Assembly: GCA_963662715.1 (NCBI GenBank) | Contig: OY759724.1 | Span: forward strand, 268,670 to 332,669 | Direction of reading: 5' to 3' | Length of the DNA stretch: 64,000 bases | Source: Candidatus Omnitrophota bacterium | Lineage (GTDB): Bacteria > Omnitrophota > Gorgyraeia > Zapsychrales > JANLHA01 | Part shown: positions 5,886 to 46,743 of the stretch, in pieces | How the letters are laid out: each line of letters opens with the position of its first letter | Numbering within the stretch: position 1 is the first letter of the stretch | Translations under genes and position numbers: made by a program | Notes under the pieces: model-generated | Databases searched by the model: none | What the model was told of the DNA's origin: nothing | The model's input: only the letters and a program-made list of their open reading frames with translations

Positions 5886-6030
5886 TCATTTCGTTTGAAG
5901 ACATACAGTGTTTCCAGTCAGCAAAATTGAGACAAATGAGCGGATAAAAATAAGAGAGAAATTTTAGGGTTGAGAAGCCCTGATTTCGGCTCCATAATGA
6001 GGCTTTAGGCCTCAGGAAAGGAGCAAAAGA

Positions 6031-6363
6031 ATGAGCAAGCCAAAAGATGTTGTGAAAGAAATCCGCAGGGCAACCCGCCGAAAATTTACCCCAGACGAAA
6101 AGATCCGCATTGTGCTGGAAGGTCTTCGGGGAGATATCCCGATATCTGAAATCTGCCGAAAAGAAGGCATCGCCGCATCCGTTTATTATAAATGGTCAAA
6201 AGAATTTCTTGAGACGGGCAAGAATGGTCTAACCCGTTCAACAATGAGGGAGGCCACTAGCGATGAGGTGAAAGCGCTAAAGAACGAGAATGCCGATTTG
6301 AAGCGGGTGGTGGCGGATTTGACGCTGGATTTGGTGAAATATAAAAAAAGTCTTGGCATGTAG
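6031..6363 (+). CDS. IS3-family transposase OrfA (HTH)
   Basis: 110 aa, HTH region RIVLEGLRGDIPISEICRKEGIAASVYYKWSKEF; ends just after the A AAA AAG slippery heptamer. Confidence 0.85.
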   Translation: MSKPKDVVKEIRRATRRKFTPDEKIRIVLEGLRGDIPISEICRKEGIAASVYYKWSKEFLETGKNGLTRSTMREATSDEVKALKNENADLKRVVADLTLDLVKYKKSLGM

Positions 6364-7372: not shown

Positions 7373-7392
7373 ATTAAATTGCAATTTGTCTC

Positions 7393-23368: not shown

Positions 23369-24091
23369 TTTCTTCCGCTTGTTGCTATTTAATTAGTTTT
23401 AATAATTTTACGATTCTTTTCTCCTTAATCTCCTTCAAAGCCTTGATTTCTATTGGTAAGCCATGATCAAATATTTCTTGAAGCTCTTTGTAAAACATAT
23501 TGAAAAATATCTCAAGATAGAAAAGAAGGACATATATTTATTCTTAAAAAAAATTGATGGCCTCTGAATCCCATAAGAGGGAAAATCAGGTATTAATATA
23601 AAAATCACCACTAACAGCAGGTTCGTCAACATATATTGTAGGTGAAAATTTTTCTTTTCTTATCTTTACACAGTCACCACGGAGAGTTTTTTAATAGCGC
23701 TTCTAAATTGGTATAAAACACATCTATCTAAACGGCCTTCTTTTTATGAGCATTGTTGAACAGGTGATCTCTTCTTCAAGATTATGATACTCTTCTTTCT
23801 GTTTTCGTATATACCCCTCAAACAGCTCTTTTTTATGTGGATACTTCAACATTAATTCGTGACACCTTCTCTGTATGTCTTGATACTATTTTTCATATTC
23901 ATTTTTATCACTTATTTCATCACTGAGATATTCCTTGATAATTTCCATATCAGCCGTTTTTATTTGGTTTGTCAGTTCCTTCTTTGTTCTAATTATCGCA
24001 TGGGTAGAATCGTTACTTTCTTTCATATACCCATCATCGAGTATGATGATACCATTGTCGCATAATAGCGGTTGTATGTCTTCAAACGAAA

Positions 24092-24379
24092 TGAGACAAA
24101 TTGCAATTTAATTTAAGAGACGATTTCAGCTCCAATATTCATTATTTTACCGTTATATTTCCTTCTGGCAAGAATAGTCTTTTGCTTCAAATCTTGCCTT
24201 CGTCTTTGTATCTGATCACGCCGTCCATAATAAACATCGTCCGGTGTCACATTACCAATCCCTTCATGATAACGCCGTGAGTTGTACCAGTGAATAAATC
24301 GCGCGATTTCATCCTCAAGCCGTTCAGGGCTATCCCAGACATGCAGAAGAATCGTCTCCTTGGCGCTTCGATGAAACCG
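24092..24379 (-). mobile_element. Truncated copy of the IS3-family element (3' end of orfB plus right IR)
   Basis: Encodes 89 aa that match the orfB C-terminus at 7106-7372 except for a single substitution (N->D). The terminal TGAGACAAAT is at 24092-24101. Homology to the IS stops near 24380. Confidence 0.8.
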
Positions 24380-24857
24380 CATACTTCCGAGCGATATACT
24401 TGATTTTCTTCCATCTTCTCAGAGCATAAGGCTGAACATCACATTGAGGGCCGAAATAATTCTTGCACTCTTGAAGAACCATATCACAGAGGTCTGCTTG
24501 GATACCTCGAATGAAGGAATGGATGTGAACACCCCTCCTTGACGTATTCCGCTCGCAAATCACAAGGCAATGGATATATCGCTCATAAAACTTCTTGTAA
24601 TCACGGTTGAGGTACTTGAAGAAATGCTTGTACGCATCCTTAGCCTCGGTCTTACCCGTCGCCCTCGGGAAAGTCATCGTTGCGTACAAATCGAAAGGCC
24701 CCAGTTGCTTAATCAGCTTGCCGAATCCCCGTATTCGGTCGTATCTGCTTGTCGTTTCCAACGCTTGCAGTTTTAACAGCTCTAACATATAAAATCCCCT
24801 CAAGGGTGATGATTCATCACGCCTAAATGACTGCATCCAATGTATGTATGTCACCAT
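24380..24857 (-). pseudogene. HUH-superfamily rolling-circle Rep-like protein, 3'-truncated by the IS fragment
   Basis: ORF 24330..24857: motif I-like LYATMTFP, HUH motif GVHIHSFIRG, and a Y-x-x-x-K-Y tyrosine motif (KYIARKY) just before the reading frame runs into IS sequence. Confidence 0.45.
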
Positions 24858-25067
24858 ACATAACGAAGCCTCCTGCGGGAAGAAGCCGCACAGGAGGCTA
24901 AAATCACCACACTTTCACCACGTCAAAAGGCCAAAATCGACCTTTGATGAGGTGAAGATGTCTTGCAATAACTGGATTTAACTTGTAATAATTGTTTCGT
25001 TCTCTCGTCGAGAACTTGTGGATTTGGTGGGAAAGTGTTGGGGCATCACAGGATGCCCCAGAAGATA

Positions 25068-25094
25068 TGGTGGAGGTGCGGGGAATCGAACCCC
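25068..25094 (-). repeat. tRNA 3'-end fragment (T-arm plus acceptor 3' strand plus CCA): att-site remnant, copy A
   Basis: Minus strand reads GGGGTTCGATTCCCCGCACCTCCACCA (T-loop TTCGATT, 3' acceptor, discriminator, CCA). No complementary 5' acceptor strand or anticodon arm follows, so it is a fragment, not a gene. Confidence 0.55.
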
Positions 25095-25196
25095 TATCAA
25101 TTATAAAGGGCTAAAACAAATGGTTTTCGGAAAATTTTTCAAAAAACCACCACATAAAAACCACATGAAATTTTTGAGTGAAAAATTTGACAAAAA

Positions 25197-25219
25197 ATGG
25201 TGGAGGTGCCGGGAATCTC
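25197..25219 (-). repeat. Second, shorter tRNA 3'-end fragment (copy B) in direct orientation
   Basis: Minus strand reads GATTCCCGGCACCTCCACCA (1 mismatch to copy A), 129 bp from copy A. Each copy is followed on its right by the motif CCACATAAAAACCACAT (25150-25168 and 25281-25297). Confidence 0.5.
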
Positions 25220-28284: not shown

Positions 28285-28746
28285 TCAACTACTATCCTTC
28301 TCCATTAAGGCAAGCACTCGTTTCTTGCGGATGACCGCTGACTGCTTTGCATTATTTTTGTTTTCGTCATTAACCTCCGGCGTATGGAACAAATAGGCAT
28401 ATAAAAACGCATCAATTAGTTTTTCGATCCTGTCCACCTTCCCGGACAACCTGTCATTCAAGGTTGTAATGCTGGTGCAGATGATTTCACGGGTTTCTTC
28501 TATCGTCGAATGAAAAGTAGCACCGGATTTATTTACGTCTACCAATCCCAACTCATTTAATAATTCCTTATGTTCAAGCGTCATTTGGGCATAGTTGATG
28601 ATGGCATTGCGCATAAATTCTGAAATTGAAACACCCTGTTCCTGCGCCAGCATGACGAACAGTTTATTCTCATCGGCAGTGACTCTAACGCCTATGGTTT
28701 TTGTTTTATGGGCCGTAGATTTATTAGTCATAATCTTCTCTCGCAA
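28285..28746 (-). CDS. Ribbon-helix-helix relaxosome accessory protein (MobC-like)
   Basis: 153 aa; the N-terminal RHH-like segment (TIGVRVTADENKLFVMLAQEQGVSISEFMRNAIINY) resembles MobC/TraJ-type accessory proteins. Confidence 0.45.
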   Translation of the reverse strand: MREKIMTNKSTAHKTKTIGVRVTADENKLFVMLAQEQGVSISEFMRNAIINYAQMTLEHKELLNELGLVDVNKSGATFHSTIEETREIICTSITTLNDRLSGKVDRIEKLIDAFLYAYLFHTPEVNDENKNNAKQSAVIRKKRVLALMEKDSS

Positions 28747-31340: not shown

Positions 31341-32792
31341 CTACCTGATTTTTTTATTGATAGACATATTTGGGGAAAGAATCCCAATTTTCTGAAAATT
31401 GTCCAAGCGGTCTTTCATTGTCTTAATAAACTTCCCCCGGAATGTCGAAGTGTTCAAATTCACAAGATCCTCGCGATTCCGTTTTAAATAATCAATCGCA
31501 TACTGGTCAGCCTTTGTGAAGGACTTTGTCCTCTCAATAGTACTTAGCGGCCCCCAATTGGTGAACGACAAATAAGTTTTCTTGACGCCATTCTTTTTAT
31601 AAGACTTGACTTGCAGATGCACGGTATCTCCGTTTTTAATCTTTTGCCTATCCCTCTGTCTGATCATCTCATTCTTAGGATGGGTATAATGAATTTTTCC
31701 ATCCAAACCTTCAATCAACATGTAGCGTTTGTCGTTTTGTTCATTGTGCAAGCCAAAGCCTACCACACGTCCGACAACATGCTGGCCTTCTTTAAGCTGG
31801 GTATAAACCAACGGTAACGAAGGATCAGAAATATGTTTGAGATGCATGGTCTTTCGTTTGATAATATCCTGTGTCATCTGATAGGTCTTAAGACCGTCTT
31901 CCAAGTCTTCGGATACATTCCAGGTCAGGACACCGGTTTTACTGACAAATCCCATTGCCTCCAAGTATTGAAGACGTCCTAAAATCTGCAATCTCTTCTC
32001 TGTTTCAAAAAAACTTTCAGGAAGCTTTCCCTTAAACGTTAATCTACCGGCATCATCTTTCATACGCAGAATATCCCTATCAAGTTCTGTCAACCTGTTT
32101 TGAGAAATCGTCTTTTCCCGGCGTCTTAAAATATCACTGTTTAATCGGACACCTATTTGCCGAGTAGCCTCTTCCCTTGAGCGGAAACGTATTCCTTTCT
32201 TAATATAATTTTTGTTCATAATAAGTTCATTTCCCATCTCATCCTTTCCCCTTAAAACAATATGCACATGCGGGTCATCGGTGTTGTAATGATCAATCGC
32301 CATCCATTCCAATCGCGTCCCCAAATCCGATTCCATTCTCTGCATAAGATGACGGACATGCACCTTTAAATCCATACGCTCTGCCTGTTCGGGAGAAACA
32401 ATAATCTTAAACACATGCCCGTCACCTTCCTTTTGCCAGGCATCAAGTTTTTGTGATAAATCAACCTCTTCTTCCTCTGCTGAAAATCCCTTGCCACGCC
32501 TGCCCTCTATCTGCGCACCCTCACGTTCCAAATACCGACCATGCGCTTTCCACTGTCCGGAATGATGATTCACCGCGTAAGAAACCTTCACCACACTATT
32601 TTGAAAATTCCTCCCAGGATAAAAAAACCGTCCGCTCCCCTTAATTTCACTAGTACCTTCCCGTGTTTTATTAACAGCAGCTTTAATTAACCAAAGCTGT
32701 CCAAAAGATGTTGACTTCTCAAACCTTCGCCTTGAAGAACGGACGCGCAACAGCAACTCATTTATGTCATCTTTATTTTTGTGCAGAACCAT
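31341..32792 (-). CDS. Conjugative relaxase (VirD2/TraI-like HUH nickase)
   Basis: 483 aa; 3-His metal-binding motif HYNTDDPHVHIVLRG and N-terminal Tyr-containing region; sits between the VirB11 and VirD4 genes. Confidence 0.8.
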   Translation of the reverse strand: MVLHKNKDDINELLLRVRSSRRRFEKSTSFGQLWLIKAAVNKTREGTSEIKGSGRFFYPGRNFQNSVVKVSYAVNHHSGQWKAHGRYLEREGAQIEGRRGKGFSAEEEEVDLSQKLDAWQKEGDGHVFKIIVSPEQAERMDLKVHVRHLMQRMESDLGTRLEWMAIDHYNTDDPHVHIVLRGKDEMGNELIMNKNYIKKGIRFRSREEATRQIGVRLNSDILRRREKTISQNRLTELDRDILRMKDDAGRLTFKGKLPESFFETEKRLQILGRLQYLEAMGFVSKTGVLTWNVSEDLEDGLKTYQMTQDIIKRKTMHLKHISDPSLPLVYTQLKEGQHVVGRVVGFGLHNEQNDKRYMLIEGLDGKIHYTHPKNEMIRQRDRQKIKNGDTVHLQVKSYKKNGVKKTYLSFTNWGPLSTIERTKSFTKADQYAIDYLKRNREDLVNLNTSTFRGKFIKTMKDRLDNFQKIGILSPNMSINKKIR

Positions 32793-32796
32793 ATAT

Positions 32797-33072
32797 TCAC
32801 CTCATCATTTTGTTAATAGAAATCTTTTTACTTCGGGTAAAATCAACCTTCAATCCTTGTTGAGTTTGGCGGACGGCAATCACGTTCCCTACCTTGAATT
32901 TCTTTACATAATCGCCTTTGACCCTCAATATCCATTTCTTCTCACGATCCTCAAGAACAATATCGGATATCTTTTGTATTTTTTGATCAGGAGATTGCCG
33001 AATACTCTTGATTGTTCCCCTAACCTGCCTCCCAGGATGAAGCTCAATTTTTTTCATTTTTTCTTCTGCCAC
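32797..33072 (-). CDS. Hypothetical small basic protein in the transfer operon
   Basis: 91 aa, Lys/Arg-rich; starts 16 nt after the VirB11 stop, and its own stop overlaps the relaxase start. Confidence 0.4.
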   Translation of the reverse strand: MAEEKMKKIELHPGRQVRGTIKSIRQSPDQKIQKISDIVLEDREKKWILRVKGDYVKKFKVGNVIAVRQTQQGLKVDFTRSKKISINKMMR

Positions 33073-33088
33073 GACTTTATTCCTATGC

Positions 33089-34108
33089 TTAATTCGTCAA
33101 CTCAAACAAGCTCACGATACGATTAAACGACATGTCCTGTCTCATTTTTATATTTTGTACGATATATCTTTCTCTCCTTCGATCATATCCTTGTACTTTG
33201 AGAATTTCTTTAATCGTCCTTCCTGCTAAAGTCCCCGGTGCCCTTGCGATAAAGATAATTACATTGATCGTATCAGCAATAACCTCCGGTAAAGGTATGA
33301 CATTACCTTCACGGATCAACTGCTCAATTCGGCGAAGCCCGCCTATAGCATGACTGGCATGTACCGTACATGCCCCAGGATGCCCCGTATTCCAAGCCTT
33401 AATCATGGTGTTAGCCTCTTTACCTCTGACCTCACCGACTACGATACGGTCAGGATTGTTTCTTAAACAATTACGAAGAAGATCATCCATATTCCGATGA
33501 CGGCAACTACGGAACGCCAGCCTTTTTTCTATACGACACTGCAACTCAAAAGTGTCCTCAATAGTAATAATCCGCTCCTCAGGAAATTGTCGTCCCATAT
33601 CATCAAGGATAGCGTTAAGTAATGTTGTTTTTCCTGACCCGGTACTCCCGGCTACAAGAATCGTCTGCCTGTTTCCAATCACTTCCTGAATAAAGTCCTT
33701 CTCATCAGCAGAGATAATTCCTTGCCCCACATATTCCTGCAAAGTTACAACTCTTGAAGCCGGAATCCTGATGGTAAAACACGGGTGTGTCACAATGGGT
33801 GGAATCTGACCTTGGAACCTTAACAACCGCCATTCATTATCAATACAAAACGGAATCTCTCCGCTTATATCCGGATTGTCCCGGTCAACAATCGCATCGG
33901 TTATCCCGGCCACCGTACAGATAATGTTATAGGCCCGTGATGCATCAAGAGTCCCGCATTTTCTGACTCCTTCAAACGTATCTGCCCACACAATCCCATC
34001 CGGATTAAGCATCACGTCCGTTACTCTATGATCAGAAATCACAGACAATAAATCTTCACCAAGGACAGATACAAATTTCTCGTTATTAAAATGACCATTC
34101 AAAATCAA
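33089..34108 (-). CDS. virB11: T4SS ATPase VirB11/TrbB
   Basis: 339 aa; Walker A VAGSTGSGKTTLLNA and the Asp/His boxes of the VirB11/GspE-like family. Confidence 0.9.
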   Translation of the reverse strand: MILNGHFNNEKFVSVLGEDLLSVISDHRVTDVMLNPDGIVWADTFEGVRKCGTLDASRAYNIICTVAGITDAIVDRDNPDISGEIPFCIDNEWRLLRFQGQIPPIVTHPCFTIRIPASRVVTLQEYVGQGIISADEKDFIQEVIGNRQTILVAGSTGSGKTTLLNAILDDMGRQFPEERIITIEDTFELQCRIEKRLAFRSCRHRNMDDLLRNCLRNNPDRIVVGEVRGKEANTMIKAWNTGHPGACTVHASHAIGGLRRIEQLIREGNVIPLPEVIADTINVIIFIARAPGTLAGRTIKEILKVQGYDRRRERYIVQNIKMRQDMSFNRIVSLFELTN

Positions 34109-34112
34109 TCCC

Positions 34113-35375
34113 TCACGGTGTTAAAATGATGTCTTTTAAAACCAAGACGTTAAATTTATAACCAGGCCGTATTTCAATGGTCGGTTGAATATTGATATTT
34201 TTTCTCATCATCTCGGTCGTGACCTGAGTCAATTGCTGACCTATACCGGAAGCGACCTTATCTCTTGCTTCGTCACTATCTGAATCATCATTCAACAATT
34301 CATACCCGGCCCCAACCAGACTCAGTAAAAACGCATTACCGTAAATCCGCCAATAATGATGATTGACTTTATCTTCAAACCCAGCGTATCCGGCAGAATC
34401 AACTCCCTGCATCTTATCCAGGTTTAAACTCGACCCATCAGGAAATATAAGTCTCGTCCAAATCACAAGGGCACGATTTTGTCCCAGGCTTACCTGACTG
34501 TTATACTGGCCGATTAACCTTGCTCCCTGCGGAATAAGCACATGCTCCCCAGTCACAGTATCGTAAATGTTTTCCCGAACCTGTGCGATAATGTTTCCCG
34601 GAAGATCAGAATTAATTCCTGTCATAAGGGCCGCTGGAATAACCGTACCAGCCTTTATTTCAAATTCTGAAATAGGTTTCTTCTTGGTGTGCATTAAATA
34701 CTCCCCGGCATACCCGGCGGATTGGATGAAATCTTTTTTACTGCCCTGCATATTCTGATCCTGATAACCAGCCAAGCCTTCGGGATATCGTGACGGCGAT
34801 GATTCTTTTAATTGTGAAACCTTGTTATCAGAAGACATCGCCGTTGTATTATTCTCAAATTCATTCTCCCCGTTCCTGCCGACTAAGACCTCAGCCGGAG
34901 ATTTTACCGCCCTTAAATAGAACTTGCGTTCCTCAATCTGCATCTGTTGCTCCAGCCGCAATAATTCCAATTGTGTTTTCCGTTCCTCTTCTTCATAATC
35001 CTGCTCAAACGAATTCTTTGGTTGCAAAACAACCGGATTATCTTCAAAAGACACATTGTCAGATTTATCCTCATTTGTATTTTCTGTCTCTTTCGTGCTA
35101 TCATCCGGCACATGCGTTTGGCGGATATCATCATACTTTTTATCCAAAAACCATTCATCGTCCGAAACCTTTGAAATACTGCCTAACTGCGCCTGGTCAA
35201 GCCGGCTTTCCTTTTTCTGGCGTCTTTGTTCCTGTTTCCCGGCGACGTTAAAAATTAGATAAACAACTACACATATCAAACATGCTAAGGCCATGATAAG
35301 AGGGGTCTTTCTGATTTTGACAATACCGCTCGGAACAGGTTTAAGAATATTGGGGCCGTCTAATCGGTCACTCAT
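34113..35375 (-). CDS. virB10: T4SS protein VirB10/TrbI
   Basis: 420 aa; N-terminal TM, acidic/Pro-containing linker, C-terminal TrbI beta-barrel region. Confidence 0.75.
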   Translation of the reverse strand: MSDRLDGPNILKPVPSGIVKIRKTPLIMALACLICVVVYLIFNVAGKQEQRRQKKESRLDQAQLGSISKVSDDEWFLDKKYDDIRQTHVPDDSTKETENTNEDKSDNVSFEDNPVVLQPKNSFEQDYEEEERKTQLELLRLEQQMQIEERKFYLRAVKSPAEVLVGRNGENEFENNTTAMSSDNKVSQLKESSPSRYPEGLAGYQDQNMQGSKKDFIQSAGYAGEYLMHTKKKPISEFEIKAGTVIPAALMTGINSDLPGNIIAQVRENIYDTVTGEHVLIPQGARLIGQYNSQVSLGQNRALVIWTRLIFPDGSSLNLDKMQGVDSAGYAGFEDKVNHHYWRIYGNAFLLSLVGAGYELLNDDSDSDEARDKVASGIGQQLTQVTTEMMRKNINIQPTIEIRPGYKFNVLVLKDIILTP

Positions 35376-36439
35376 CGTTTACCCCCCTTTACAACAGAAA
35401 TAATTTCCTTACTCTTTTTTGTTCTTAATACCAGCACTCCCTTATCAAACAACCGGTCTATCTCAAACACTAGATTTCCGTTCTCTGCTCGCTTGGTTCG
35501 GTAGTTGACAATTTCATACTCGTTATCATTCCCCACTACGAAAAATACCGGAAGCTCATAGGAATCAACTATCTTGGGGAACTGAATAAAAACTTTTTTC
35601 CCATCGTCGTATATCCTGTCCGGCCACCAGGGCTGTCTCTTTTTTCCTTTAACCTCGTAGTAAAAATTATAGTCATCAAACATATAAATCCTCGAATAAT
35701 GATCTTTATCTGGCCGGTTAGATTGTGTTTCTGTGGACAATTCGGGTAAATCAACTTTTATGGAATGTTCCTGCGGATAAAAAAATCCGATGTATGGGGT
35801 ATACTCCCCTTCCGGTACGGATTTTAAAACAATGTAATAAAACCTCCTGTTTGTAGAAATAGCAATCGTTGTTTCCATTTTTTCGGTCACAAGCGGCTTG
35901 ACGATCACATGCTGTTTGAACGTCTCCCCATCACCGATATGCGAAACACCGATCCACCACCGCTGCGTATCTCCGGGATTAAGGTCCATCACCCGTTCTC
36001 CTGCTTCCAGTTCAATATGACATGTTCGCAATGGAACACACACCAGTTCAGGCTGTGATAAGCTGTATGGAAAAAGAATTTTATTTCCTACAATAATAGG
36101 CTCTACTTTCCCATTCTTTTGATAGTTCAAGATAGAAGCCTTAACAGCATTGTATTCACCGACAGGCCTTGCCTTGATCCCCAAAGCTTTCACGTCCACC
36201 GGATCATTTTTAAGAAACTCCTGCACCATCGAATTATTCAATGCTTCCTGATTTTTTTCTTGTTGTTTTTTCTCCGCCAACTCTTCCTTTCTTTTTTCCC
36301 TCATAGACCGGGTCAAGGACTCAACGGCAACGTCTGTTTTCTCTGTCCATAAAAGCGATCTCTCGCATGTTGCACACCCGCTAAATCCAAATATCAGCGC
36401 AATAAATATACTCACTCTTTTCATTCTCATCATCCTCAC
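35372..36439 (-). CDS. virB9: T4SS protein VirB9/TrbG (lipoprotein)
   Basis: 355 aa; signal peptide with lipobox (FGFSGC); position and size appropriate for VirB9. Confidence 0.7.
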   Translation of the reverse strand: MRMMRMKRVSIFIALIFGFSGCATCERSLLWTEKTDVAVESLTRSMREKRKEELAEKKQQEKNQEALNNSMVQEFLKNDPVDVKALGIKARPVGEYNAVKASILNYQKNGKVEPIIVGNKILFPYSLSQPELVCVPLRTCHIELEAGERVMDLNPGDTQRWWIGVSHIGDGETFKQHVIVKPLVTEKMETTIAISTNRRFYYIVLKSVPEGEYTPYIGFFYPQEHSIKVDLPELSTETQSNRPDKDHYSRIYMFDDYNFYYEVKGKKRQPWWPDRIYDDGKKVFIQFPKIVDSYELPVFFVVGNDNEYEIVNYRTKRAENGNLVFEIDRLFDKGVLVLRTKKSKEIISVVKGGKR

Positions 36440-36446
36440 CCCCGCA

Positions 36447-37124
36447 TTAAAGTGTTTTTGACCAAGAAATGCTTTTAATAAATATCCCGAAAGGATTAGC
36501 CGGATTATCCCTTAATGTCTTTGGTGAATCAGGCGGGATTTGCGTAACAATAAATAATCCCTTCCAGCGGCAACGCTCAATTTCCGTGTTATTCATATCA
36601 CGCTCAGTTTCCTCCCATTCAACAATATAGGTATTCTCGGTTTGCTTTAGAAAGGTTAAAGGCTTAACCTGGACAGACTTTTTCCTTGCCATATCAAAAG
36701 GATTATTCTCCTGGTAATATTCATTCAGGAAATTCCTGACAGGCGGGGCAGCCAAACGGTAAACATCATCAAAATTTTTACGCATCGCTTCCGGGTCTGA
36801 AATTATTGACCGGGCCATTTCGATAAAATCATATAAGTAGGCACGAATAATTTTGTCATCTGCCATTTCTGTTTTTTGTGCAGGACCAGAAGCCACAGCC
36901 CGTCCTGTTTGGTCAACTTCGACAATCCAGGGAACTATTTCTCTTCTTAACCCTGTGGCAATCAGTCCTATCGCCAAGACAAAAATTATCAGCAATTCAA
37001 AGCAAGCGGCAATTTGCCAATTGTGCTTCTCCTGAATCGGCTGATTAAATAAGGCATTCCATTCCTTTCGAATATTGTGATAAGGATTCTTTTGATCCTT
37101 AGATTGTTTATTTGGTGTTTCCAT
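36447..37124 (-). CDS. virB8: T4SS protein VirB8/TrbF
   Basis: 225 aa; single N-terminal TM and NTF2-like C-terminal domain; located between the VirB6 and VirB9 genes. Confidence 0.7.
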   Translation of the reverse strand: METPNKQSKDQKNPYHNIRKEWNALFNQPIQEKHNWQIAACFELLIIFVLAIGLIATGLRREIVPWIVEVDQTGRAVASGPAQKTEMADDKIIRAYLYDFIEMARSIISDPEAMRKNFDDVYRLAAPPVRNFLNEYYQENNPFDMARKKSVQVKPLTFLKQTENTYIVEWEETERDMNNTEIERCRWKGLFIVTQIPPDSPKTLRDNPANPFGIFIKSISWSKTL

Positions 37125-38283
37125 GATTGTCTCCTGTATTTAAACCTCGTCTGGTCCCTCTACCTAAACCAGCTCCTGCTGATAATGTCTTAATATAATT
37201 CGCAACCTTCCCGCCGCCGGTTCTTGAAATAGATGCCTGCATCCTCTCTTTAAATTGACTGCCGGCTGCTGAAGCCAGCGTCTTAATCGTTGTGCCCGTA
37301 GCTATACCTATTTTGCCTATAGGTGTTGCTCCCGGAGTCATCTGGGCCTTTGCAACTCCGACCTTTGTGGCTTCATAAACAGCCGCACCTGCACCGACCG
37401 TTTCCCGTGCTGCCCCTGTCGTGCTGTGGATTAAAGTTCGTGCTCCGTATAGACCGCCTAAAGCAGTACCGGCAGCTATCGTTCCAATACCGTGTCCAAA
37501 ATTCATATTAATTGATCCGGTTAATAATGATGCGCCCATATCCGGCACCTTCAACGCCATAAAAAGATAAGTCAAACTTGCCGCCAGAATAGAAAAGTAA
37601 GACTCAAAAAGATTGCCCTGTGCATTTTTAACAACATTGATCCAATTGGTCGTCAATGTCTCGCCTAACCCCACAATCAAGGTTAGGAATAAAAGTTTTA
37701 ATCCAATGTGAACAGCAGTCACAAAATACCGTTCTGCAAACTGTCTCGTCCATTGGCTCCCTGCAAAGCCTAAAACAACTATCCCTCCGGCTAAAATTAT
37801 TTTCCCTCCGATTAAGGTTAGGGCCATTTCAATAGAAATAAGTAAAAACGAAAGGAATACAAGAAGAGCAACAATCACATTAAAGATCGCAGCCCCGACC
37901 TTTTCCAGTAATCCGCCCGCAAAGGATGTCGTGAGCATAGTGCTCGCCAAATCGACTCCCCGTCTTGCCACATCGCCGGGATACAATTGACTTACGCCCA
38001 CCATCTGCTCCCCTGCCTCGCGCAAGCTGTTATAGATAGCTGGTATCCATGTGTCGGCATGATCAATCACCATGAGAAAGAATGACAGCACCAAAATCTT
38101 TTTGGCAAACTCAACCATAAGATTCGTCGGGTCGTCTCTGTTGAGCATCCACACGATTCCGGCCCAAATGATTTGAATGACAGCCAGCAACATAAAAAGG
38201 TCATGCGCAATATTAATTGCGATCACTTCCCAATTAAAAATATCATTGTTGTACTGGGCTAATAAATTATCGAAAATCTGCAT
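37108..38283 (-). CDS. virB6: T4SS protein VirB6/TrbL
   Basis: 391 aa polytopic membrane protein with a Gly/Thr-rich C-terminal tail typical of TrbL/VirB6. Confidence 0.75.
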   Translation of the reverse strand: MQIFDNLLAQYNNDIFNWEVIAINIAHDLFMLLAVIQIIWAGIVWMLNRDDPTNLMVEFAKKILVLSFFLMVIDHADTWIPAIYNSLREAGEQMVGVSQLYPGDVARRGVDLASTMLTTSFAGGLLEKVGAAIFNVIVALLVFLSFLLISIEMALTLIGGKIILAGGIVVLGFAGSQWTRQFAERYFVTAVHIGLKLLFLTLIVGLGETLTTNWINVVKNAQGNLFESYFSILAASLTYLFMALKVPDMGASLLTGSINMNFGHGIGTIAAGTALGGLYGARTLIHSTTGAARETVGAGAAVYEATKVGVAKAQMTPGATPIGKIGIATGTTIKTLASAAGSQFKERMQASISRTGGGKVANYIKTLSAGAGLGRGTRRGLNTGDNHGNTK

Positions 38284-38366
38284 CGGATAACCTTTTCCTT
38301 CTTAGACACTTCTTCCTTTTCTTAACAAATCCAGAATATTTATTAATAAAGGGGAGTTTATAAGAA

Positions 38367-39089
38367 TCAATACCCAGGGGTATTTCCCGCCGTAAACGGT
38401 ATTTCATGAAAAAACTCTTCAGCAGCGGCATTGTCCGCGGCTTCCTTATTAACCTGATGCGCCATATAGGCATTTTGGGCCTGTATCTGTGACATATTAA
38501 GCTGACGAAGTTTTTGTAGCTGTCCTACCATTTCATTAGCGATCATATTCGCTGCCTGTAAAGCCTGGGTCTGGCCTTCCGCACTATCTGAAAGATTTCG
38601 TATTGTTTTCATAGTGGCATCTTCTGTCTGAAACTGATTGCTTTGTAATCCCGCTGCCGCAAAAGATCCGGCAATCGAATCCAGTGTTGTCTGCGACCAG
38701 TCCTGATAAGATTGAATATAATCTACAGGCGGGTCATACCCAGGATACTTTGCTTTAAACACCTGTTCGATATTCTGCAAGGTATAAGACATGGCCTGCC
38801 CTTGCTTGACAATCTGCTGAAGTTGCTGCAAAGCCTGGATTGTTTTTCCCCACTCGCTTTGAGGAAACGTGGCAATACTTTTAAACATCTCGATTTGATT
38901 CTGGATCATCTGAATTTGATTAACTACCATCTGTGCCTGTTTGGCTACTGAAGCAATCAACTCAGCATGATTCAATAACTGTGTCATTTCCGTCGCATAG
39001 ATAGCATAGGAATTTTTAATAGGAACAATGCTAAAAATAAATATAAAAATCATATGTGTTATACGTTGATGTAATAGTTGTGTCTTCAT
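38367..39089 (-). CDS. T4SS protein TrbJ/VirB5-like
   Basis: 240 aa; signal peptide, Gln-rich coiled-coil (QQLQQIVKQGQ...), located between the VirB4 and VirB6 genes. Confidence 0.6.
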   Translation of the reverse strand: MKTQLLHQRITHMIFIFIFSIVPIKNSYAIYATEMTQLLNHAELIASVAKQAQMVVNQIQMIQNQIEMFKSIATFPQSEWGKTIQALQQLQQIVKQGQAMSYTLQNIEQVFKAKYPGYDPPVDYIQSYQDWSQTTLDSIAGSFAAAGLQSNQFQTEDATMKTIRNLSDSAEGQTQALQAANMIANEMVGQLQKLRQLNMSQIQAQNAYMAHQVNKEAADNAAAEEFFHEIPFTAGNTPGY

Positions 39090-39093
39090 CGTC

Positions 39094-41562
39094 TTACCCC
39101 CTCCTGTTTGTTAAACTTTCATAAACCTCATCCCATAAACCAGCCTCTTCATTCAAGCCATACTCACTCAACCAATATTTCACCCACGCCTCACCATGTT
39201 TTTGCTCCAAAGATTTAATTCGTTTGATATCTTCTAAAGAAGTCTTTCCCATAAAACTTAAAAATGCTTTCTCCAACTCCAAATCTATTAAGCGCATCCC
39301 TAAAGGAGAAGTGTAATAATAATGTTTCTTCGCAATCGCATTGGCAATGATCCCAATTTGCGTTTCATTTAGCCCTAAAGTTTTATACGCTTCTTCTCCT
39401 GTGGGGGATGCGGCTTGAGGATTGGGTAAATAGACTTTGACCGGACAAGATTCAAGGATCACATCTTTGATCGAAGAATGAATAATGTCTGTGACATGCT
39501 GAGTACAAAAAACCACACATGCATTAGCCTTGCGCAGTTCACGAAGCCAGATTTTGAGTTTTTCTCTAAACATTTGATCATCAAAGACCGTCCATGCTTC
39601 ATCAACCGCGATAAGTGTCGGGGCGCCGCTTAATCGCCGTTCAATCTGGTGAAACAGATAAGATAAGACCGGAATCGAAAACCGTTTTTCCTCTTCCATG
39701 AGCTTTGAGATTTCAAATACCTGGAAATGTCCATCCTGTAAGCTGTCATGTGATGCATCCAGCAAGTGCGCCATAACTCCCTTTTGGGTTGAGACGAACG
39801 GGTCAAGTGCTTTGCGTATTTCAGTGTTTTGAATGTTTAAACAAAAGTTCGAAAGTGTTTTCTCTTTATCTGACCGCAAGGCATTTATGGCATTACTGAT
39901 CGCAATACGCTTCTCCGGGTTCATTTCAACCCCGGCTAATACGATCAACTCTTCCATCCATTCGCAGGCCCATCGTTTTTCGCTCTCAACAGCAATGTCT
40001 TTTAACGGAGAAAAGGTCAGGTGACTGTCATCATCCAGGATGGGATAATGACGCGCACTACACGCCTTGACTAAAGCAAACATACTATTTCGTTTATCAA
40101 AACAAAATACCTGTGCTCCAGGGTAACGCAAGAATTGAACGCACATAAGGGAAAGTAATGTTGATTTACCTGATCCGGTCGGCCCGCAAATCATAGTATG
40201 CCCCACGTCATCCACATAATTGTTAAACCGGAAAGGCGCAGCTCCTTGCGTCGAAGCATAGAATAAGGAAGGGCTGTTTTTCTCAAGTCGAGGATTAGGA
40301 TTGTACTCCTGTCCTGTCCATGTTCCGGCGAGCGGCATCAAATGAGTCATATTCAATGTATGTATGAGCGGCTTTCTGACATTACGAGCACTATCACCCG
40401 GCAAACTTCCAAGATACGCTTCAATAGCATTAATTGTTTCCACACGGGCCGGAAACCGTTTATCCGTTAGTAAATCACGGACAATTTTAACGCGCCGTTG
40501 ACATTCACTCTCATCCTCGCAAATGATAACAATGACCGATGAAAAATAACCGTAACGAACACCCCCTGCCTGAGCGATAGTCATAGCCTGATGAGCGTCC
40601 GCAGCCTTTTCGGCAGCTTCAATATTGCCATACTGACTCTCAGAGCCAGGCGAGATAATTTGCAGGATGATATTCTTTAAATTAAATTGTTTATTGTGCC
40701 ATTTGAGCAATACCTTTTTGATTTCTTGCTCCGCATCAACCGGATCAAGGACAATAAAACGGATGGAGAACCGGTATTCAAAAGGCAAAGACATCAAGGC
40801 ATTGCCAAGCATCTCGCTATGACTTTCCGAAGGGAACCCAACCACAGCAACCACACCGATATATTTCCCATCAATTTGCGGATGTATCCCACCGGTGAAG
40901 TCATACCCGCCCAGCAGATAATTAAGAAAACCACCCTGCACATCGGCAAAATCAATGTATCGTGCAGTAATACAATAGTGAAGAAATCCCTGCATTTGTG
41001 TAGATGACATCTGTTCAACGTTTAACCGTGCACCGCTAAGTCCGGATTCCACCTCAAGAATGACCTGCTTAAATTCTCGGCACAAAGATTCCATGTCTCT
41101 TTGCTTAACAGCATCGATTTTGTTTTTCTTCTCAGAAGTGACAAATAGCTTTTGAAACTTCCTGTCCTGTAAAGCCGAAGGTTTGTAGGTCAACGTTAAA
41201 ACGTAGACCGTTTCAAAATGCCTCTGTGCCGACTCAAAATTACTTTTTCGCTCACAATCAATAAGCCAGGATGTAGCATCAGGGAAAGAATTGTCATGAG
41301 GATATTCTGTAACAGGAATACGAATGGCATTAACATTGATAACCCAGCCTGTGCGCAGACTGCCCAGGACTGCGTTAACCTGAGAACATAGCGCATCTTT
41401 ATCCTGAGCAGAGGACGAATCCAGATCAGGGCCGTGATAGTAAAATCCGGCCATTAAACTTCCGTCTTTATTGAGCAGAATACCCTCGTCTACAAAACCG
41501 AAGTAATTGATAAGATCAGGGAATCCTTTAAAATTATTTTGTGCTTCACTGTTTTTCTGCAT
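39094..41562 (-). CDS. virB4: T4SS ATPase VirB4/TrbE
   Basis: 822 aa; Walker A GPTGSGKS, Walker B region; canonical size. Confidence 0.9.
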   Translation of the reverse strand: MQKNSEAQNNFKGFPDLINYFGFVDEGILLNKDGSLMAGFYYHGPDLDSSSAQDKDALCSQVNAVLGSLRTGWVINVNAIRIPVTEYPHDNSFPDATSWLIDCERKSNFESAQRHFETVYVLTLTYKPSALQDRKFQKLFVTSEKKNKIDAVKQRDMESLCREFKQVILEVESGLSGARLNVEQMSSTQMQGFLHYCITARYIDFADVQGGFLNYLLGGYDFTGGIHPQIDGKYIGVVAVVGFPSESHSEMLGNALMSLPFEYRFSIRFIVLDPVDAEQEIKKVLLKWHNKQFNLKNIILQIISPGSESQYGNIEAAEKAADAHQAMTIAQAGGVRYGYFSSVIVIICEDESECQRRVKIVRDLLTDKRFPARVETINAIEAYLGSLPGDSARNVRKPLIHTLNMTHLMPLAGTWTGQEYNPNPRLEKNSPSLFYASTQGAAPFRFNNYVDDVGHTMICGPTGSGKSTLLSLMCVQFLRYPGAQVFCFDKRNSMFALVKACSARHYPILDDDSHLTFSPLKDIAVESEKRWACEWMEELIVLAGVEMNPEKRIAISNAINALRSDKEKTLSNFCLNIQNTEIRKALDPFVSTQKGVMAHLLDASHDSLQDGHFQVFEISKLMEEEKRFSIPVLSYLFHQIERRLSGAPTLIAVDEAWTVFDDQMFREKLKIWLRELRKANACVVFCTQHVTDIIHSSIKDVILESCPVKVYLPNPQAASPTGEEAYKTLGLNETQIGIIANAIAKKHYYYTSPLGMRLIDLELEKAFLSFMGKTSLEDIKRIKSLEQKHGEAWVKYWLSEYGLNEEAGLWDEVYESLTNRRG

Positions 41563-41571
41563 GGCAACCTC

Positions 41572-41859
41572 TTAAATTCTTACACTCGTTTCACCGGCAG
41601 GGTAATAATCCCGATATTTGATGTGTCGAAAAAATATCTTGGTAAGCTGAGGATCGATCTTGGCTGCTTCACGGGCAAGAATGCTGCCGATCAGCCAGAT
41701 AATCCCCGAGAGGATTAACGAGTTGATATCCTTTCCGGCTACCCAAACAATAGCTGACGTAAAACCGATCAATATAATTAATTCCCTTTCTGCCCCAGCA
41801 ACTAACACAGGTTGTACAAGCGATTGATGAATAGTTATTATTTTTATTTCCTCTGACAT
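41572..41859 (-). CDS. virB3: T4SS protein VirB3/TrbD
   Basis: 95 aa, two TM helices, immediately upstream of virB4. Confidence 0.75.
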   Translation of the reverse strand: MSEEIKIITIHQSLVQPVLVAGAERELIILIGFTSAIVWVAGKDINSLILSGIIWLIGSILAREAAKIDPQLTKIFFRHIKYRDYYPAGETSVRI

Positions 41860-41883
41860 CCGATCTCTCCCGGATAAAGGTGT

Positions 41884-42195
41884 TTAAAGCAACGATGCAT
41901 TAAGACCAAATAATCCCATCAATCCCCAGGCGGAAGACACAATGCTAAAACCCAAGACTGTAGTAATGAATGCTCGAATTCCCCTGTTGACCTCCGAGAA
42001 CATCAACGCCACAGCCGCAGCCACAAGAGCAATGATTGAAATGCTGGTTGCTACCGGGCCCTGTAACGATTCTGCGATTTGAGTCAAAGGCCCTTCCCAA
42101 GGTAAGCTGCTCCCCACAATCCCGGCAAAAGCATTGTTTGCAAACCAAGCCATAAACCAGGGAGTTAAAATACATAACCGGATTATTGTTTTCAT
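41884..42195 (-). CDS. virB2: T4SS pilin VirB2/TrbC
   Basis: 103 aa; long signal peptide then two hydrophobic helices (TSISIIALVAAAVALMF; AFITTVLGFSIVSSAWGLMGLFG). Confidence 0.8.
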   Translation of the reverse strand: MKTIIRLCILTPWFMAWFANNAFAGIVGSSLPWEGPLTQIAESLQGPVATSISIIALVAAAVALMFSEVNRGIRAFITTVLGFSIVSSAWGLMGLFGLNASLL

Positions 42196-43498: not shown

Positions 43499-44416
43499 TC
43501 ACACAACCTTCTTGATCCTTTTTTCTTTACGGATGATCTGCCCAACATCTTCTATAATACAAGCCATATCGTCCTCACTCAAGAGATTATTTGCCTGCAT
43601 GAATTGATCCCAGTAGCCAAAAAACCGATAGAAAAGCCTCCTTAATTGCCGAAGAACTTTTCTGACCTGGATTATTTCTAAATCCAGCAATATGGCGATG
43701 CCTTCCAAGCTTAAATGATCCATTTGCCGAATTGCCCTGTGAACTTTGCGTTTTATCTCATAGGATTTATTGATCGGGAGTTTACACGGACGGCTTAATC
43801 GATTGAATTTCCAGGTCGGTTCCAATCTTTCATCAAGAATTCCTTTTTCCTTGAGTTCTAGCAGTATGACCTCGCTATCCTTAACATTTAACTTATCAAA
43901 ATATTCTCGAAGATCAAGATCATGATAAAACATAAGTTCAATGATTTGATAGTGAATGCCGTTTTTGTCAAACGAGTCAACAAAATCACTGACGAGCTTC
44001 TGGACAACCTCATCTTTTTCCTGCTCTGTTAAATTCTTAACATGGTTATTTTTCCCTGGGAAACCCTCAATGAAATTAACCCATTCTTTAAAAAAGGATG
44101 ACTCTCTGACTAACATGCGATATTCCGGGAGCTTGACACTATCAGATATAATTTTTCTTTTACGGTTGTGCAGCCATTTAAGAAAAGATTCTCCTATTCC
44201 CGTATCCCAATTCCCGGTCACTGCATGCATAGCTAACAAAACATCGTGAGCACAATCTTCACCATCCAAATCCGGCCTAATGCTGCAATAGGGTTTCATC
44301 CTCATTTTTCTAGCTGCCGAACAAGCAAGTCTACAACGAACTTCCTTTATAGTCATTGTCTTTTTTTTGACATATTCTTCCTTTTTCTCGGATTTCTCCT
44401 CCTCTTTTTTACCCAT
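43499..44416 (-). CDS. Sigma-70 family RNA polymerase sigma factor-like protein
   Basis: 305 aa; region-2-like segment (DCAHDVLLAMHAVTGNWDTGIGESFLKWLH) and C-terminal region-4-like HTH (HLSLEGIAILLDLEIIQVRKVLRQLRR). Assignment by pattern only. Confidence 0.5.
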   Translation of the reverse strand: MGKKEEEKSEKKEEYVKKKTMTIKEVRCRLACSAARKMRMKPYCSIRPDLDGEDCAHDVLLAMHAVTGNWDTGIGESFLKWLHNRKRKIISDSVKLPEYRMLVRESSFFKEWVNFIEGFPGKNNHVKNLTEQEKDEVVQKLVSDFVDSFDKNGIHYQIIELMFYHDLDLREYFDKLNVKDSEVILLELKEKGILDERLEPTWKFNRLSRPCKLPINKSYEIKRKVHRAIRQMDHLSLEGIAILLDLEIIQVRKVLRQLRRLFYRFFGYWDQFMQANNLLSEDDMACIIEDVGQIIRKEKRIKKVV

Positions 44417-44443
44417 CGCCCTTTCCTCCTACAGTTTCAAATC

Positions 44444-44520
44444 GACGTTAATTAAATAAATCTTCACGAAACGCCCCTTTAAATGGACGTTAAATAAATA
44501 ATTCTTCACGAAACACCCCC
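44444..44520 (-). promoter_or_regulatory. Two ~34-bp imperfect direct repeats in the promoter region of the sigma-factor gene
   Basis: GACGTTAATTAAATAAATCTTCACGAAACGCCCC (44444-44477) and GACGTTAAATAAATAATTCTTCACGAAACACCCCC (44486-44520), with 42-bp periodicity, 28-104 bp upstream of the start codon at 44416. Confidence 0.5.
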
Positions 44521-45026
44521 TCTCGATAAAAATGCTCTCTTAATTATTTTAATACATCATTTCACTGCTGTCTCGCTTAAAAATTGCACCTGATGTAATT
44601 TATTACAACAAAGGGATTAACAAGAAAAAAAATATTTAGACCTGGCCAATAAGGTTTACGCATTGGACGCACCAACAACCGGCCAATGCCCCTCCGTATT
44701 CCCGTAGGCCAAATTTCGCAAAACCAAAGCAGGCATCAAACTTCACAAATAAAAGCCAGGGGGAGCGTAAAACTGGCCGCCGACAGCGTTAACGCGGACA
44801 TTAACATTTGTTAGATAAAATACCAATTTGTTAAACAAAACACCCCTCTTCCCCGCATAAAATACCCCTGTGTTAAACGTCCTTTATCTTGCTGTACGGC
44901 TGACAGATAGGGGTTTTTTGTTAACATTTTGGGATTTTGGGTTTATAGGATTATTTTTGGGAAGGAGAAACCGGCAGGCCTTGTCCGGGCCTTTTAATAG
45001 CGAGAGGCCCGACTCGCGGGAAAAGA

Positions 45027-45545
45027 TCAGATGTTTAAAAAGACATAAACAGTATATTGACTACTTTGGACACTGTAATAATCACACATGAAAAGGTCAC
45101 GGGCAAATTTTTCGTAATCAAAATAGAAAGCTAACCGTTCCGGGATGTCCATTGTTTCATCAGCCAAATTTTCCGCAAAGGCCTCTTCTGAGTCCCATTC
45201 CCCTTGATAGGATTCTTCAAACCCTTCTTCTGTGGCATAATCAACGCCCACGTTATTGGCATAAGCCGCGTAGGCTTCCCCATGCTCTTCAATGAGCCGG
45301 GCGTATCGGACCACATCTTTGATGCTTTCATATTCCGATAGATGAAGTCCTTCAAAGCCCTCGTAATCATGAATCGCGTACTCCTCTGCGAAGGGTTCCG
45401 GGCTGTTTTTTAGCATATCCTGAATTTCTTCATGGATAGCATCCGCATCCTGATTCGCGTCAATCCATCTTCCATGCAGTTTGCCGTTGTTGTACGCCGC
45501 CAAACAGGCAACGTAAATCCGGGGTGTAATCGTTTGAGTAGCCAT
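45027..45545 (-). CDS. ardA: Antirestriction protein ArdA
   Basis: Signature TPRIYVACLAAYNNGKLHGRWIDA and acidic C-terminal DNA-mimic region. Start reassigned to the internal Met at 45545 (MATQTI...), which is preceded by AAGGAG; the ORF track start at 45611 lacks an RBS. Confidence 0.85.
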   Translation of the reverse strand: MATQTITPRIYVACLAAYNNGKLHGRWIDANQDADAIHEEIQDMLKNSPEPFAEEYAIHDYEGFEGLHLSEYESIKDVVRYARLIEEHGEAYAAYANNVGVDYATEEGFEESYQGEWDSEEAFAENLADETMDIPERLAFYFDYEKFARDLFMCDYYSVQSSQYTVYVFLNI

Positions 45546-45846
45546 GAGCGCATCTCCTTTTTTGAGGATTAATCCGTTGGAGATCGAACCCTCGATCTCT
45601 GTTTGACTCACTCATGGACATATGCCATGCAAGGATGCGCAGGCTTTCCTTAAATGATCAAAATAACCATTTGGGAGAAAGCCAAGCACTCGCAAGTCCT
45701 GATGGTCTTTTATCAGGACGCCGTCCTTGTGGCATATGTAAAAATGGGCAAACAGAGATTGATGGGGTTGCCCTCGACTCGAAGGGCTGGATGGAAATGG
45801 TGGTTTACAAATTATTTAAAAAACTGAAGCAGGAGATTTTGACGCA

Positions 45847-46743
45847 TTACATTATTGAGGCAGTTGCCGTGGACTTGCTATCTTCGATTTTACCCAAGTC
45901 CGCAGTAAAATAATAGCGCGAGGTGAGGATAGCATAAAGCCGCTTTGCCAGGCATTCAGCTTCTTGATCAGTTCCTTCTACCGAAACAACTGCCTCGTCG
46001 CCTTCCTGTAAACCCAAACATAAAAGAGCCATGATAGATTTGGCATTGGGTTTATTATCATCCGAAGAGTTTTTTTCGCTGATAAAGACAGCATGTGGAT
46101 ATTTTCTGCATTCTTTTACTATTCGGGTGCCAGCGAAGAACCCAAGTCCGCCATTAAGATGAATCTGTACTTTAACAATGGTCTGATTATTTTCTTTTGA
46201 TAGCTTGAATGGTTCAATGACATAGGGATTTGCCTGATATTTCTTGAGAAGATAGTCCAGGGATTGCTCAAGTTGTTTGCAGTCCTCCTTGTAATCATGA
46301 GTCCTCAGCACAGTGCAATCAGCGGCTTCCAAAAACCAAGCATCGATAAAAGACTGAATTTCTTCTTCAATATAGAGGATAACCGGGATATCATTTGTCT
46401 TCTTAATGGCCTTAATGAGCTTCCACCCTCGCCCATACGCTCGCTCATATTGAACCCGTCGGTCGAAGCATACAACTTCTTCTTCAGGAAGCGGAAATTT
46501 GCAGGCAAAGGCATAAGGCACATGCGTGATAACAGCGTCAAAGGCTTCTTCTGTCCCGGCTTTTGCGCGAATGATTTCGATAGTATTATCATCCAATCCA
46601 AAGCAGGTCTCGAGATGATAGTGGCGGGATAATGAATTGCAGATATATCGAAAGGCCGTGGATGTATCCTGCTCTTCCGTCTTTGACCTTTCGACGAAAA
46701 GGATTCGTTTTTGAGCTTGGGTTGTTGGATTGTCGGGGTTCAA
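45847..46743 (-). CDS. Fusion protein with C-terminal HPr-like domain lacking the phospho-His
   Basis: The C-terminal ~85 aa align with HPr (KSIMALLCLGLQEGDEAVVSVEGTDQEAECLAKRL vs HPr [30 protein letters not shown]), but the His15 site is GLGFFAGT (no His); a Ser equivalent to Ser46 is present. N-terminal ~200 aa of unknown fold. Confidence 0.55.
   Translation of the reverse strand: MNPDNPTTQAQKRILFVERSKTEEQDTSTAFRYICNSLSRHYHLETCFGLDDNTIEIIRAKAGTEEAFDAVITHVPYAFACKFPLPEEEVVCFDRRVQYERAYGRGWKLIKAIKKTNDIPVILYIEEEIQSFIDAWFLEAADCTVLRTHDYKEDCKQLEQSLDYLLKKYQANPYVIEPFKLSKENNQTIVKVQIHLNGGLGFFAGTRIVKECRKYPHAVFISEKNSSDDNKPNAKSIMALLCLGLQEGDEAVVSVEGTDQEAECLAKRLYAILTSRYYFTADLGKIEDSKSTATASIM

Follow-up and report, generated by a model that had tools for sequence, protein, structure and literature searches.

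The closest described counterparts of the locus considered here are the origins of transfer (oriT) of Tn4371-family and ICEMlSymR7A-type elements, which, like the element studied here, encode an RlxS/DUF3363 relaxase of the MOBP type. In ICEMlSymR7A, oriT lies upstream of rlxS (PMC11963761). In the Tn4371-family element ICEKKS102Tn4677, deletion analysis published in 2024 placed oriT within 58 bp of the traF-traI gap, comprising a conserved 20-bp sequence and an inverted repeat of which the presence, but not the sequence, is essential (PMC11448139); the primers of that study supply a reference oriT sequence, CGCCAGCGAGGGGCAAAGGCGGAAGGCAAGACAAAAGGACGCGGCACCGGGGCCGCGTC, also given as ...GGCGGAAGGCAAGACAAAAGGACGCGGCACCGGGGCCGCGTC. 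The RlxS/Tn4371-family oriT has thus been defined by experiment only recently, and standard oriT finders miss origins of this type. Here we analysed a 64-kb stretch of contig OY759724.1 (hereafter the window, meaning the whole 64,000 nucleotides (nt)), which carries a conjugative element in integrated form; the host genome is probably Omnitrophota-like. We consider it fairly probable that the 610-nt non-coding gap reaching from the ardA stop codon to the start of a gene for a 305-amino-acid (aa) protein (44417-45026) holds the oriT of this element, overlapping the control region of its secretion cluster. The evidence for oriT is wholly computational and rests on a 12-nt match. The kind of feature would be ordinary; what would be new is the setting of this RlxS/Tn4371-type oriT, both its host, which belongs to a little-studied lineage, and its position being unusual.

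The relaxase of the window (31341-32792, minus strand), the enzyme expected to act at such an origin, is RlxS-like and of the MOBP type. It matches the NCBIfam model relax_RlxS (NF041267) with E = 4.4e-74, MobP3 and MobP1 giving weaker matches, and DUF3363 with E = 3e-18, and it is 35-38% identical to the relaxases of proteobacterial elements. The nick-region core of the family reads GGCAAGACAAAAGG in Tn4371 and is also written GCAAGATA or GCAAGAYWAAAG. In the loci that we fetched for RlxS-type relaxases of alpha-, beta- and gammaproteobacteria and of metagenomes, the core lies upstream of the relaxase, always on the relaxase-sense strand and in the form GGCGGAGG-GCAAGA[TC][TA]AAAG[GA]. The first-pass annotation of the window had proposed the gap as a candidate oriT or regulatory region and had suggested a comparison with the nick regions of the relaxase family. 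In this comparison, the family pattern GGCAAGA[CT][AT]AAAG[GA], which belongs on the relaxase-sense strand, identified a candidate core at 44881-44892 (CCTTTATCTTGC on the plus strand, GCAAGATAAAGG on the minus strand, which is the relaxase-sense strand). GCAAGATAAAGG is present in exactly one copy in the window, in the gap and between the arms of an inverted repeat, and the same exact variant is found upstream of relaxases in three other loci (L079, L164 and L174). The corresponding relaxase-sense sequences are GCAAGACAAAAGG in Tn4371 and GCAAGATTAAAGA in alphaproteobacterial elements.

The pattern has two matches in the window versus 0.13 expected by shuffling, and the copy in the gap is the only non-coding one. 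The second match (12777-12792) is inside a glycosyltransferase gene. There, a tandem TCAAGATAAAGG-GCAAGATAAAGC at 12777-12801 mimics the oriT core, indicating that lysine-rich, purine-rich coding sequence yields chance matches. Across the 2.36 Mb of fetched loci, only ~4 matches fell away from a plausible oriT, and the probability of a chance match in the 610-nt gap is accordingly roughly 0.001-0.01. This value speaks against a purely transcriptional role of the gap, which would control the 305-aa gene and the secretion cluster and contain the 3' end of the ardA transcript, the core match being coincidental and oriT lying elsewhere, in or next to coding sequence. We give this alternative a minority, yet real, chance of being correct. 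It is further disfavoured by the lack of any other non-coding match to the family core in the element and by the lack of space upstream of the relaxase, where a 91-aa open reading frame (ORF; 32797-33072, minus strand) and virB11 leave no non-coding DNA. In the Tn4371 family the core occupies the traF-traI gap; in the window it heads the secretion cluster, and 11.6 kb separate it from the start of the relaxase gene. The host also differs, being Omnitrophota-like and not a proteobacterium.

IncP-type nick sites have the sequence TATCCTG|C, with ATCCTG|C in RP4, as known from RP4, R64 and the T-DNA borders. The complement of the core, TATCTTG|C, is one base off the IncP-type sequence, and by analogy with the RP4 site the nick is predicted between G44891 and C44892, within the plus-strand stretch CCTTTATCTTGCTG (the core is also written TATCTTGC). 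An exact RP4-type nick was rejected as a candidate, the IncP consensus YATCCTGY having 18 matches in the window and 0 in the gap. The likeness to RP4/RK2 (IncP) extends to the gene order, in which the small ORF, relaxase, coupling protein and TraF peptidase mirror traJ-traI-traG-traF, and to the presence of a TraJ/NikA-like ribbon-helix-helix protein. However, in RP4, oriT is located directly upstream of traJ and its inverted repeat ends 8 nt before the nick, whereas in the window the gene for the accessory protein comes after traF, with the candidate site a long way upstream. As read from the sequence, a weak quasi-palindromic pairing of two GTTAAAC copies ends ~13 nt before the predicted nick.

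The core is embedded in an unusual density of repeated sequence. The arms of the inverted repeat (pair I1, 14 nt, 93% complementary) are located at 44827-44847 (TTGTTAAACAAAACACCCCT) and 44909-44926 (AGGGGTTTTTTGTTAACA), and single-stranded DNA (ssDNA) folds of the imperfect repeat at ~44820-44933 are mildly significant against shuffles (z = -1.8 and -2.9). Tn4371-family origins similarly have an inverted repeat close by and repeated elements around the core; there the repeat abuts the core, whereas in the window it stands 34 nt before and 17 nt after it on the plus strand. GTTAA/TTAAC occurs 10 times in the gap; its frequency in the window predicts 1.5 copies and dinucleotide shuffling predicts 2.7, with 1 in 1000 shuffles reaching the observed count. 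A cluster of such sites spans 44786-44926 (positions read from the sequence) and includes the palindromes GCGTTAACGC (44786-44795) and TGTTAACA (44919-44926). Five or more GTTAACA-type motifs had been reported for 44789-44927, a claim that our count of six GTTAA/TTAAC copies in these 139 nt upholds (same-sized windows elsewhere: mean 0.34, maximum 5). The sites at 44788, 44809, 44830 and 44872 are spaced by multiples of 21 nt, and a 22-nt repeat pair (44815-44836 and 44857-44878), 42 nt apart, is unique in the window (2 matches versus 0.02 expected).

Allowing up to two mismatches, a 13-nt site, ACAAAACACCCCT, is present in five copies in the 64-kb window, all of them in the gap. Three surround position 44890: ACAAAACACCCCT itself at 44835-44847 (plus strand), within the left arm of the inverted repeat; ATAAAATACCCCT at 44857-44869 (plus strand), 12 nt before the core; and ACAAAAAACCCCT at 44909-44921, inverted on the minus strand and 17 nt after the core. 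The other two, ACGAAACGCCCCT at 44466-44478 and ACGAAACACCCCC at 44508-44520 (both plus strand), belong to a pair of tandem repeats near the 305-aa gene. The first-pass annotation had described the latter as 34-bp direct repeats with a 42-bp phase; the repeats exist, but their true size is larger, as they form two contiguous 42-nt units (44436-44477 and 44478-44519, plus strand; 88% identical, Tandem Repeats Finder score 134). Each unit holds GACGTTAA and ACGAAACRCCCC, exact sub-motifs found nowhere else in the window. The most fitting interpretation of the phased GTTAA motifs and of the 13-nt copies is that they are putative sites for a relaxosome accessory or regulatory protein, with the NikA/TraJ-like protein as the obvious candidate binder. 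A further 13-nt inverted match, which links the 42-nt repeats to sequence beside the core (44482-44494 and 44873-44885), was not used as evidence, several such pairs being expected by chance on a rough estimate.

Repeats of this kind could also constitute an iteron- or centromere-like locus for replication or partition, maintaining the element after excision. Direct repeats and sites on one face of the DNA, 21 or 42 nt apart, would suit such a locus, as would the AT-rich stretch at 44520-44640. We nevertheless regard it as very unlikely, given that there are just two tandem units, that the annotated stretch from 24 to 47 kb contains no adjacent gene for Rep, ParA or ParB, and that the repeated sites are not found elsewhere in the window.

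The arrangement of the gap relative to its neighbours bears directly on the transcriptional alternative, under which the repeated sites would bind a repressor or an activator. At 610 nt, the gap is the largest ORF-free stretch in both the window and the element, in agreement with the ~600-bp non-coding region initially reported, and no credible small ORF was found inside it. All flanking genes are on the minus strand, so the gap is downstream of ardA and upstream of the 305-aa gene; the earlier placement of ardA downstream of the region was reversed. The gene that heads the secretion cluster directly borders the gap, and the 42-nt repeats stop 19 nt short of its ATG. A sigma-70-like match on the minus strand (44574-44546; GAGACA, 17 nt, TAAAAT; 9/12 matches) could drive the 305-aa gene, in which case the 42-nt repeats would be in its 5' leader; matches of this kind are no more numerous in the region than chance would allow. 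Reading the repeats as an extracytoplasmic function (ECF)-type promoter (GAAAC-N15-CGT, plus strand), considered from the sequence alone, was discarded, as such a promoter would face away from the gene and its spacer is short. On the other hand, three of the five 13-nt sites are grouped around the core. They are 290 to 500 nt away from the start of the gene, a large distance for simple operators. Moreover, regulation and oriT often overlap, and evidence for regulation therefore does not exclude an oriT. The regulatory role proposed in the first-pass annotation is plausible in this sense, with the 13-nt sites confined to a gap that borders the secretion cluster, and is compatible with an oriT rather than exclusive of it.

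Other signals sought in the gap gave little. The GC-rich short hairpins just past the ardA stop codon (44960-45026), to which attention had been drawn at about 44965-45020, proved to be chance-level folds (z = -0.3 to -0.4 for 44960-45030, with 60-73 of 200 shuffles folding equally well) and include no canonical terminator. Likewise, no terminator-like site (GC stem-loop followed by a T/U run) that could end ardA transcription was detected on the minus strand of the gap, and no match to the integration host factor consensus was found in the gap.

Several observations weigh against an oriT in the gap, and these also lend the transcriptional alternative much of its support. The core match is just 12 nt long, with a near-equal match in the glycosyltransferase gene, and a 65-nt profile of the family oriT is not significant over the window (E = 2.2), the coding-region match scoring slightly better. 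The flanks of the core are not conserved, being at chance level in comparison with L174, L164 and L079. The G-rich GGCGGAGG that precedes proteobacterial cores, including those of the Tn4371 family, is missing, and the window has GCCGTACA in its place. In Tn4371, L133, L158 and L174, an inverted repeat directly abuts the core; in the window its arms stand on either side of the core at some distance. The nicked strand and nick position of the RlxS/Tn4371 family are themselves predicted rather than mapped by experiment. Finally, the closest relatives of the element (L165-L169 and L173, with relaxases 48-56% identical to that of the window) have no core motif in their recovered DNA and share another conserved hairpin element beside a NikA-like gene. 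At the same position as the gap, heading the same cluster, relatives also possess long non-coding regions (370-520 nt), in which a clear TTGATT-17-TATAAT promoter is present but the core motif is not. The earlier oriT proposal is thus modestly strengthened by a family core that occurs once in the non-coding DNA of the window, in this very gap, and tempered by the shortness of the match, its unconserved flanks and its absence from the DNA recovered for the closest relatives.

The hairpin of the relatives, ACATGGACACACAGGG..CCCTGGAGATAGGCCCGTACGTCCTACAGCGTCCATG, was located at L168:14758-14889, L169:14762-14944 and L173:15268-15449 (nhmmer E = 3e-8 for the most distant copy) and is probably the oriT of these three loci. 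It has no counterpart in the window, which counts against the transcriptional alternative. VirB4 relatives at a greater distance (L170-L172) proved to be secretion loci that lack a relaxase, and gave no information. The DNA of the gap itself showed no similarity to the plasmid collection, to 80 genome and 80 metagenome ardA loci or to the closest related elements.

A parallel to an oriT in the gap comes from L174, a metagenome contig with a relaxase 46% identical to that of the window. Here the exact 12-nt core is found within 699 nt of non-coding DNA, at a distance of 3.3 kb from the relaxase gene, and an inverted repeat follows it directly, showing that the core can be displaced from the relaxase by this distance. 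As in the window, the core of L174 is in a long non-coding region away from the relaxase, and the 3' end of a small gene (DUF3768) faces it, with a structured region upstream (z = -2.5). Unlike in the window, the core of L174 separates the secretion genes from the relaxase, an arrangement in which the former would lead; the inverted repeat of L174 is directly adjacent to the core, and its repeated sites differ (ACATCCCGTC). An oriT in the gap of the window would show that in compact integrated elements oriT need not adjoin the relaxase gene, a point to be heeded when anti-defence genes and leading regions are annotated in metagenomes.

Two ardA-bearing loci (L065:9765-9776 and L114:15140-15151) contain further RlxS-type cores, each with an inverted repeat after it. 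In L065, from Sphingorhabdus, the core is ~225 nt upstream of ardA and on the same strand, which would put ardA at the trailing end, opposite to the window.

From the observed sequence features and motif match we infer nicking, strand choice and all protein binding in the following model. The RlxS-type relaxase, probably aided by the NikA/TraJ-like protein (28285-28746), would assemble on the ~140 bp at 44786-44926, where the core is placed between the arms of the imperfect inverted repeat and among the phased GTTAA and 13-nt sites. It would nick the plus strand in TATCTTG|C, at 44891|44892, in the complement of the family core. The plus strand would then exit 5' to 3' toward higher coordinates. 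The 3' end of ardA faces the proposed nick, 135 nt away, and ardA would precede every other gene into the recipient, as template strand. The last to arrive would be the genes for secretion and for the relaxase, which is also the order in F-type and IncP-type plasmids. Two of the 13-nt copies are next to the start of the 305-aa gene, and the protein that binds these sites may for this reason also control expression of the secretion cluster.

The adjacency of ardA had been taken to mark oriT; alone this is a weak argument, as ardA of related elements is 5-6 kb from oriT, whereas the geometry of the core does predict ardA at the front. The assignment of ardA itself (45027-45545, minus strand; 172 aa from the ATG at 45545, preceded by the ribosome-binding site AAGGAG; stop codon 45027-45029) is firm (Pfam ArdA, E = 2e-43), and its closest homologues, with 75-81% identity, come from Omnitrophota metagenome-assembled genomes. 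Directly upstream of ardA, between it and a gene for an HPr-domain protein, we identified a long imperfect hairpin of ~180 nt (45589-45765, plus strand). Its ssDNA fold has an energy of -56.9 kcal/mol, compared with -35.5 +/- 3.5 for shuffles (z = -6.1 and -5.4). Several of the closest homologues likewise have comparably structured DNA ahead of ardA, with z = -3 to -6 (L001 -6.2, L007 -4.7, L093 -4.8). This hairpin would be next into the recipient, and we regard it as a candidate single-strand promoter or priming signal that could permit ardA transcription or priming from single-stranded DNA. Leading regions of plasmids carry anti-defence genes on the transferred strand that are served by single-strand promoters (PMC11541004), and the orientation of the ardA 3' end toward the core, together with a z = -6 hairpin upstream of the gene, fits this organization.

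The leading regions of F and ColIb-P9, in which oriT is followed by ardA/psiB/ssb with Frpo/ssi promoters, offer the nearest precedent. In these plasmids, as in the window, an anti-restriction gene adjoins oriT, the transferred strand is its template and a structured single-strand element is located upstream (PMC11541004). The window differs in that no gene would come before ardA, at 135 nt from the nick, and in that the element is integrated in a chromosome, F and ColIb-P9 being plasmids. The hairpin, moreover, has no recognizable -35/-10 match, so that of the Frpo/ssi features it shows the structure (z = -6.1) and not the promoter boxes.

The gap itself does not pass as Frpo/ssi, which bears on the notion that it encodes a structured non-coding RNA or is a single-strand promoter of this type. 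The length of the gap, the mild hairpin at 44820-44933 and a weak plus-strand promoter-like match at 44900-44927 would be in keeping with such a function. We find it very improbable, as an Rfam search of the gap returned no family and nothing beyond noise even at E <= 10; fold energy is at chance for the whole gap (z = +0.1 to +0.5) and for every 150-nt window (none below -1.4); no related locus shows conservation; and the strongly structured element is on the other side of ardA.

Should the proposed origin be confirmed, the window would provide a very clean example of a leading region, with the anti-restriction gene first in and a candidate single-strand expression signal right behind it. Its nick core would extend the RlxS/Tn4371 family well beyond proteobacteria, to a lineage that is uncultivated and hardly studied, and would offer a short sequence open to direct testing. 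A bolder proposal, which we hold to be unlikely, is that the nick site has moved from the relaxase to the head of the secretion cluster, where ardA, the hairpin allowing its expression from single-stranded DNA and, across the nick, the sigma-like factor would form one compact module; a single ACAAAACACCCCT-binding protein would both build the relaxosome and gate the sigma-like and secretion genes, coupling nicking to synthesis of the machinery.

The 305-aa gene (43499-44416, minus strand), the first past the gap, had been called a sigma-factor gene. The similarity to sigma-70/ECF factors is below threshold: TIGR02937 gives E = 1.2e-4 and 21.8 bits, under the cut-off of 42.9, and Sigma70_r2 gives E = 0.049. 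No homologue was retrieved in two very large searches covering billions of proteins. In the closest related elements, a protein of ~310-320 aa is encoded at the same spot, ahead of virB2. One of these, p322 of L165, is syntenic and aligns colinearly with the 305-aa protein (E = 0.001), and both L165 p322 and L166 p306 have sub-threshold sigma-70 matches of their own (E = 0.001-0.003). A profile of the four syntenic proteins identified no relative in the PDB, and the single-sequence structure model of the 305-aa protein was unusable (predicted local distance difference test (pLDDT) 44). A very divergent, element-encoded sigma-like regulator is plausible for this protein, though not established. 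Family members of ~305-322 aa heading VirB clusters are found at 43499-44416 of the window, L165:7522-8490, L166:5817-6737 and L167:2280-3239, and may represent an unrecognized clade of element-encoded sigma-like regulators.

Nearly all genes in the ORF list of the 64-kb window are on the minus strand, and the element can be followed in that order. Along this strand, an RHS-type giant protein (47093-53560) is followed by the gene just upstream of ardA, which encodes a 298-aa protein with a C-terminal HPr (phosphotransferase system phosphocarrier) domain (45847-46743), an odd cargo for a leading region. Past ardA, the gap and the 305-aa gene come a few small ORFs, a SpoVG-like protein and the secretion genes VirB2, B3, B4, B6, B8, B9, B10 and B11 (33089-42195). 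After the 91-aa ORF and the relaxase come the VirD4 coupling protein, the TraF-type S26 peptidase and the NikA/MobA/TraJ-like ribbon-helix-helix protein (28285-28746), which was assigned by domain and profile matches. An HTH_17 excisionase-like protein and a tyrosine integrase close the series. Direct repeats at 25062-25087 (AAGATATGGTGGAGGTGCGGGGAATC) and 25192-25217 (AAAAAATGGTGGAGGTGCCGGGAATC) resemble the reverse complement of a tRNA 3' end; ARAGORN found no tRNA in the window, and the repeats are probably attachment-site remnants at the integrase-side end of the element. Below ~24 kb, the DNA codes for housekeeping functions. A perfect 288-nt inverted repeat has copies at 7105-7392 and 24093-24380, 16.7 kb apart, besides which there is a 23-nt perfect pair (5885-5907 and 24073-24095). 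An rve-type transposase gene (6353-7372) has one of the 288-nt copies as its 3' end, and the other copy is just outside the integrase end of the element, so the repeat could represent a partial insertion sequence copy or an invertible segment.

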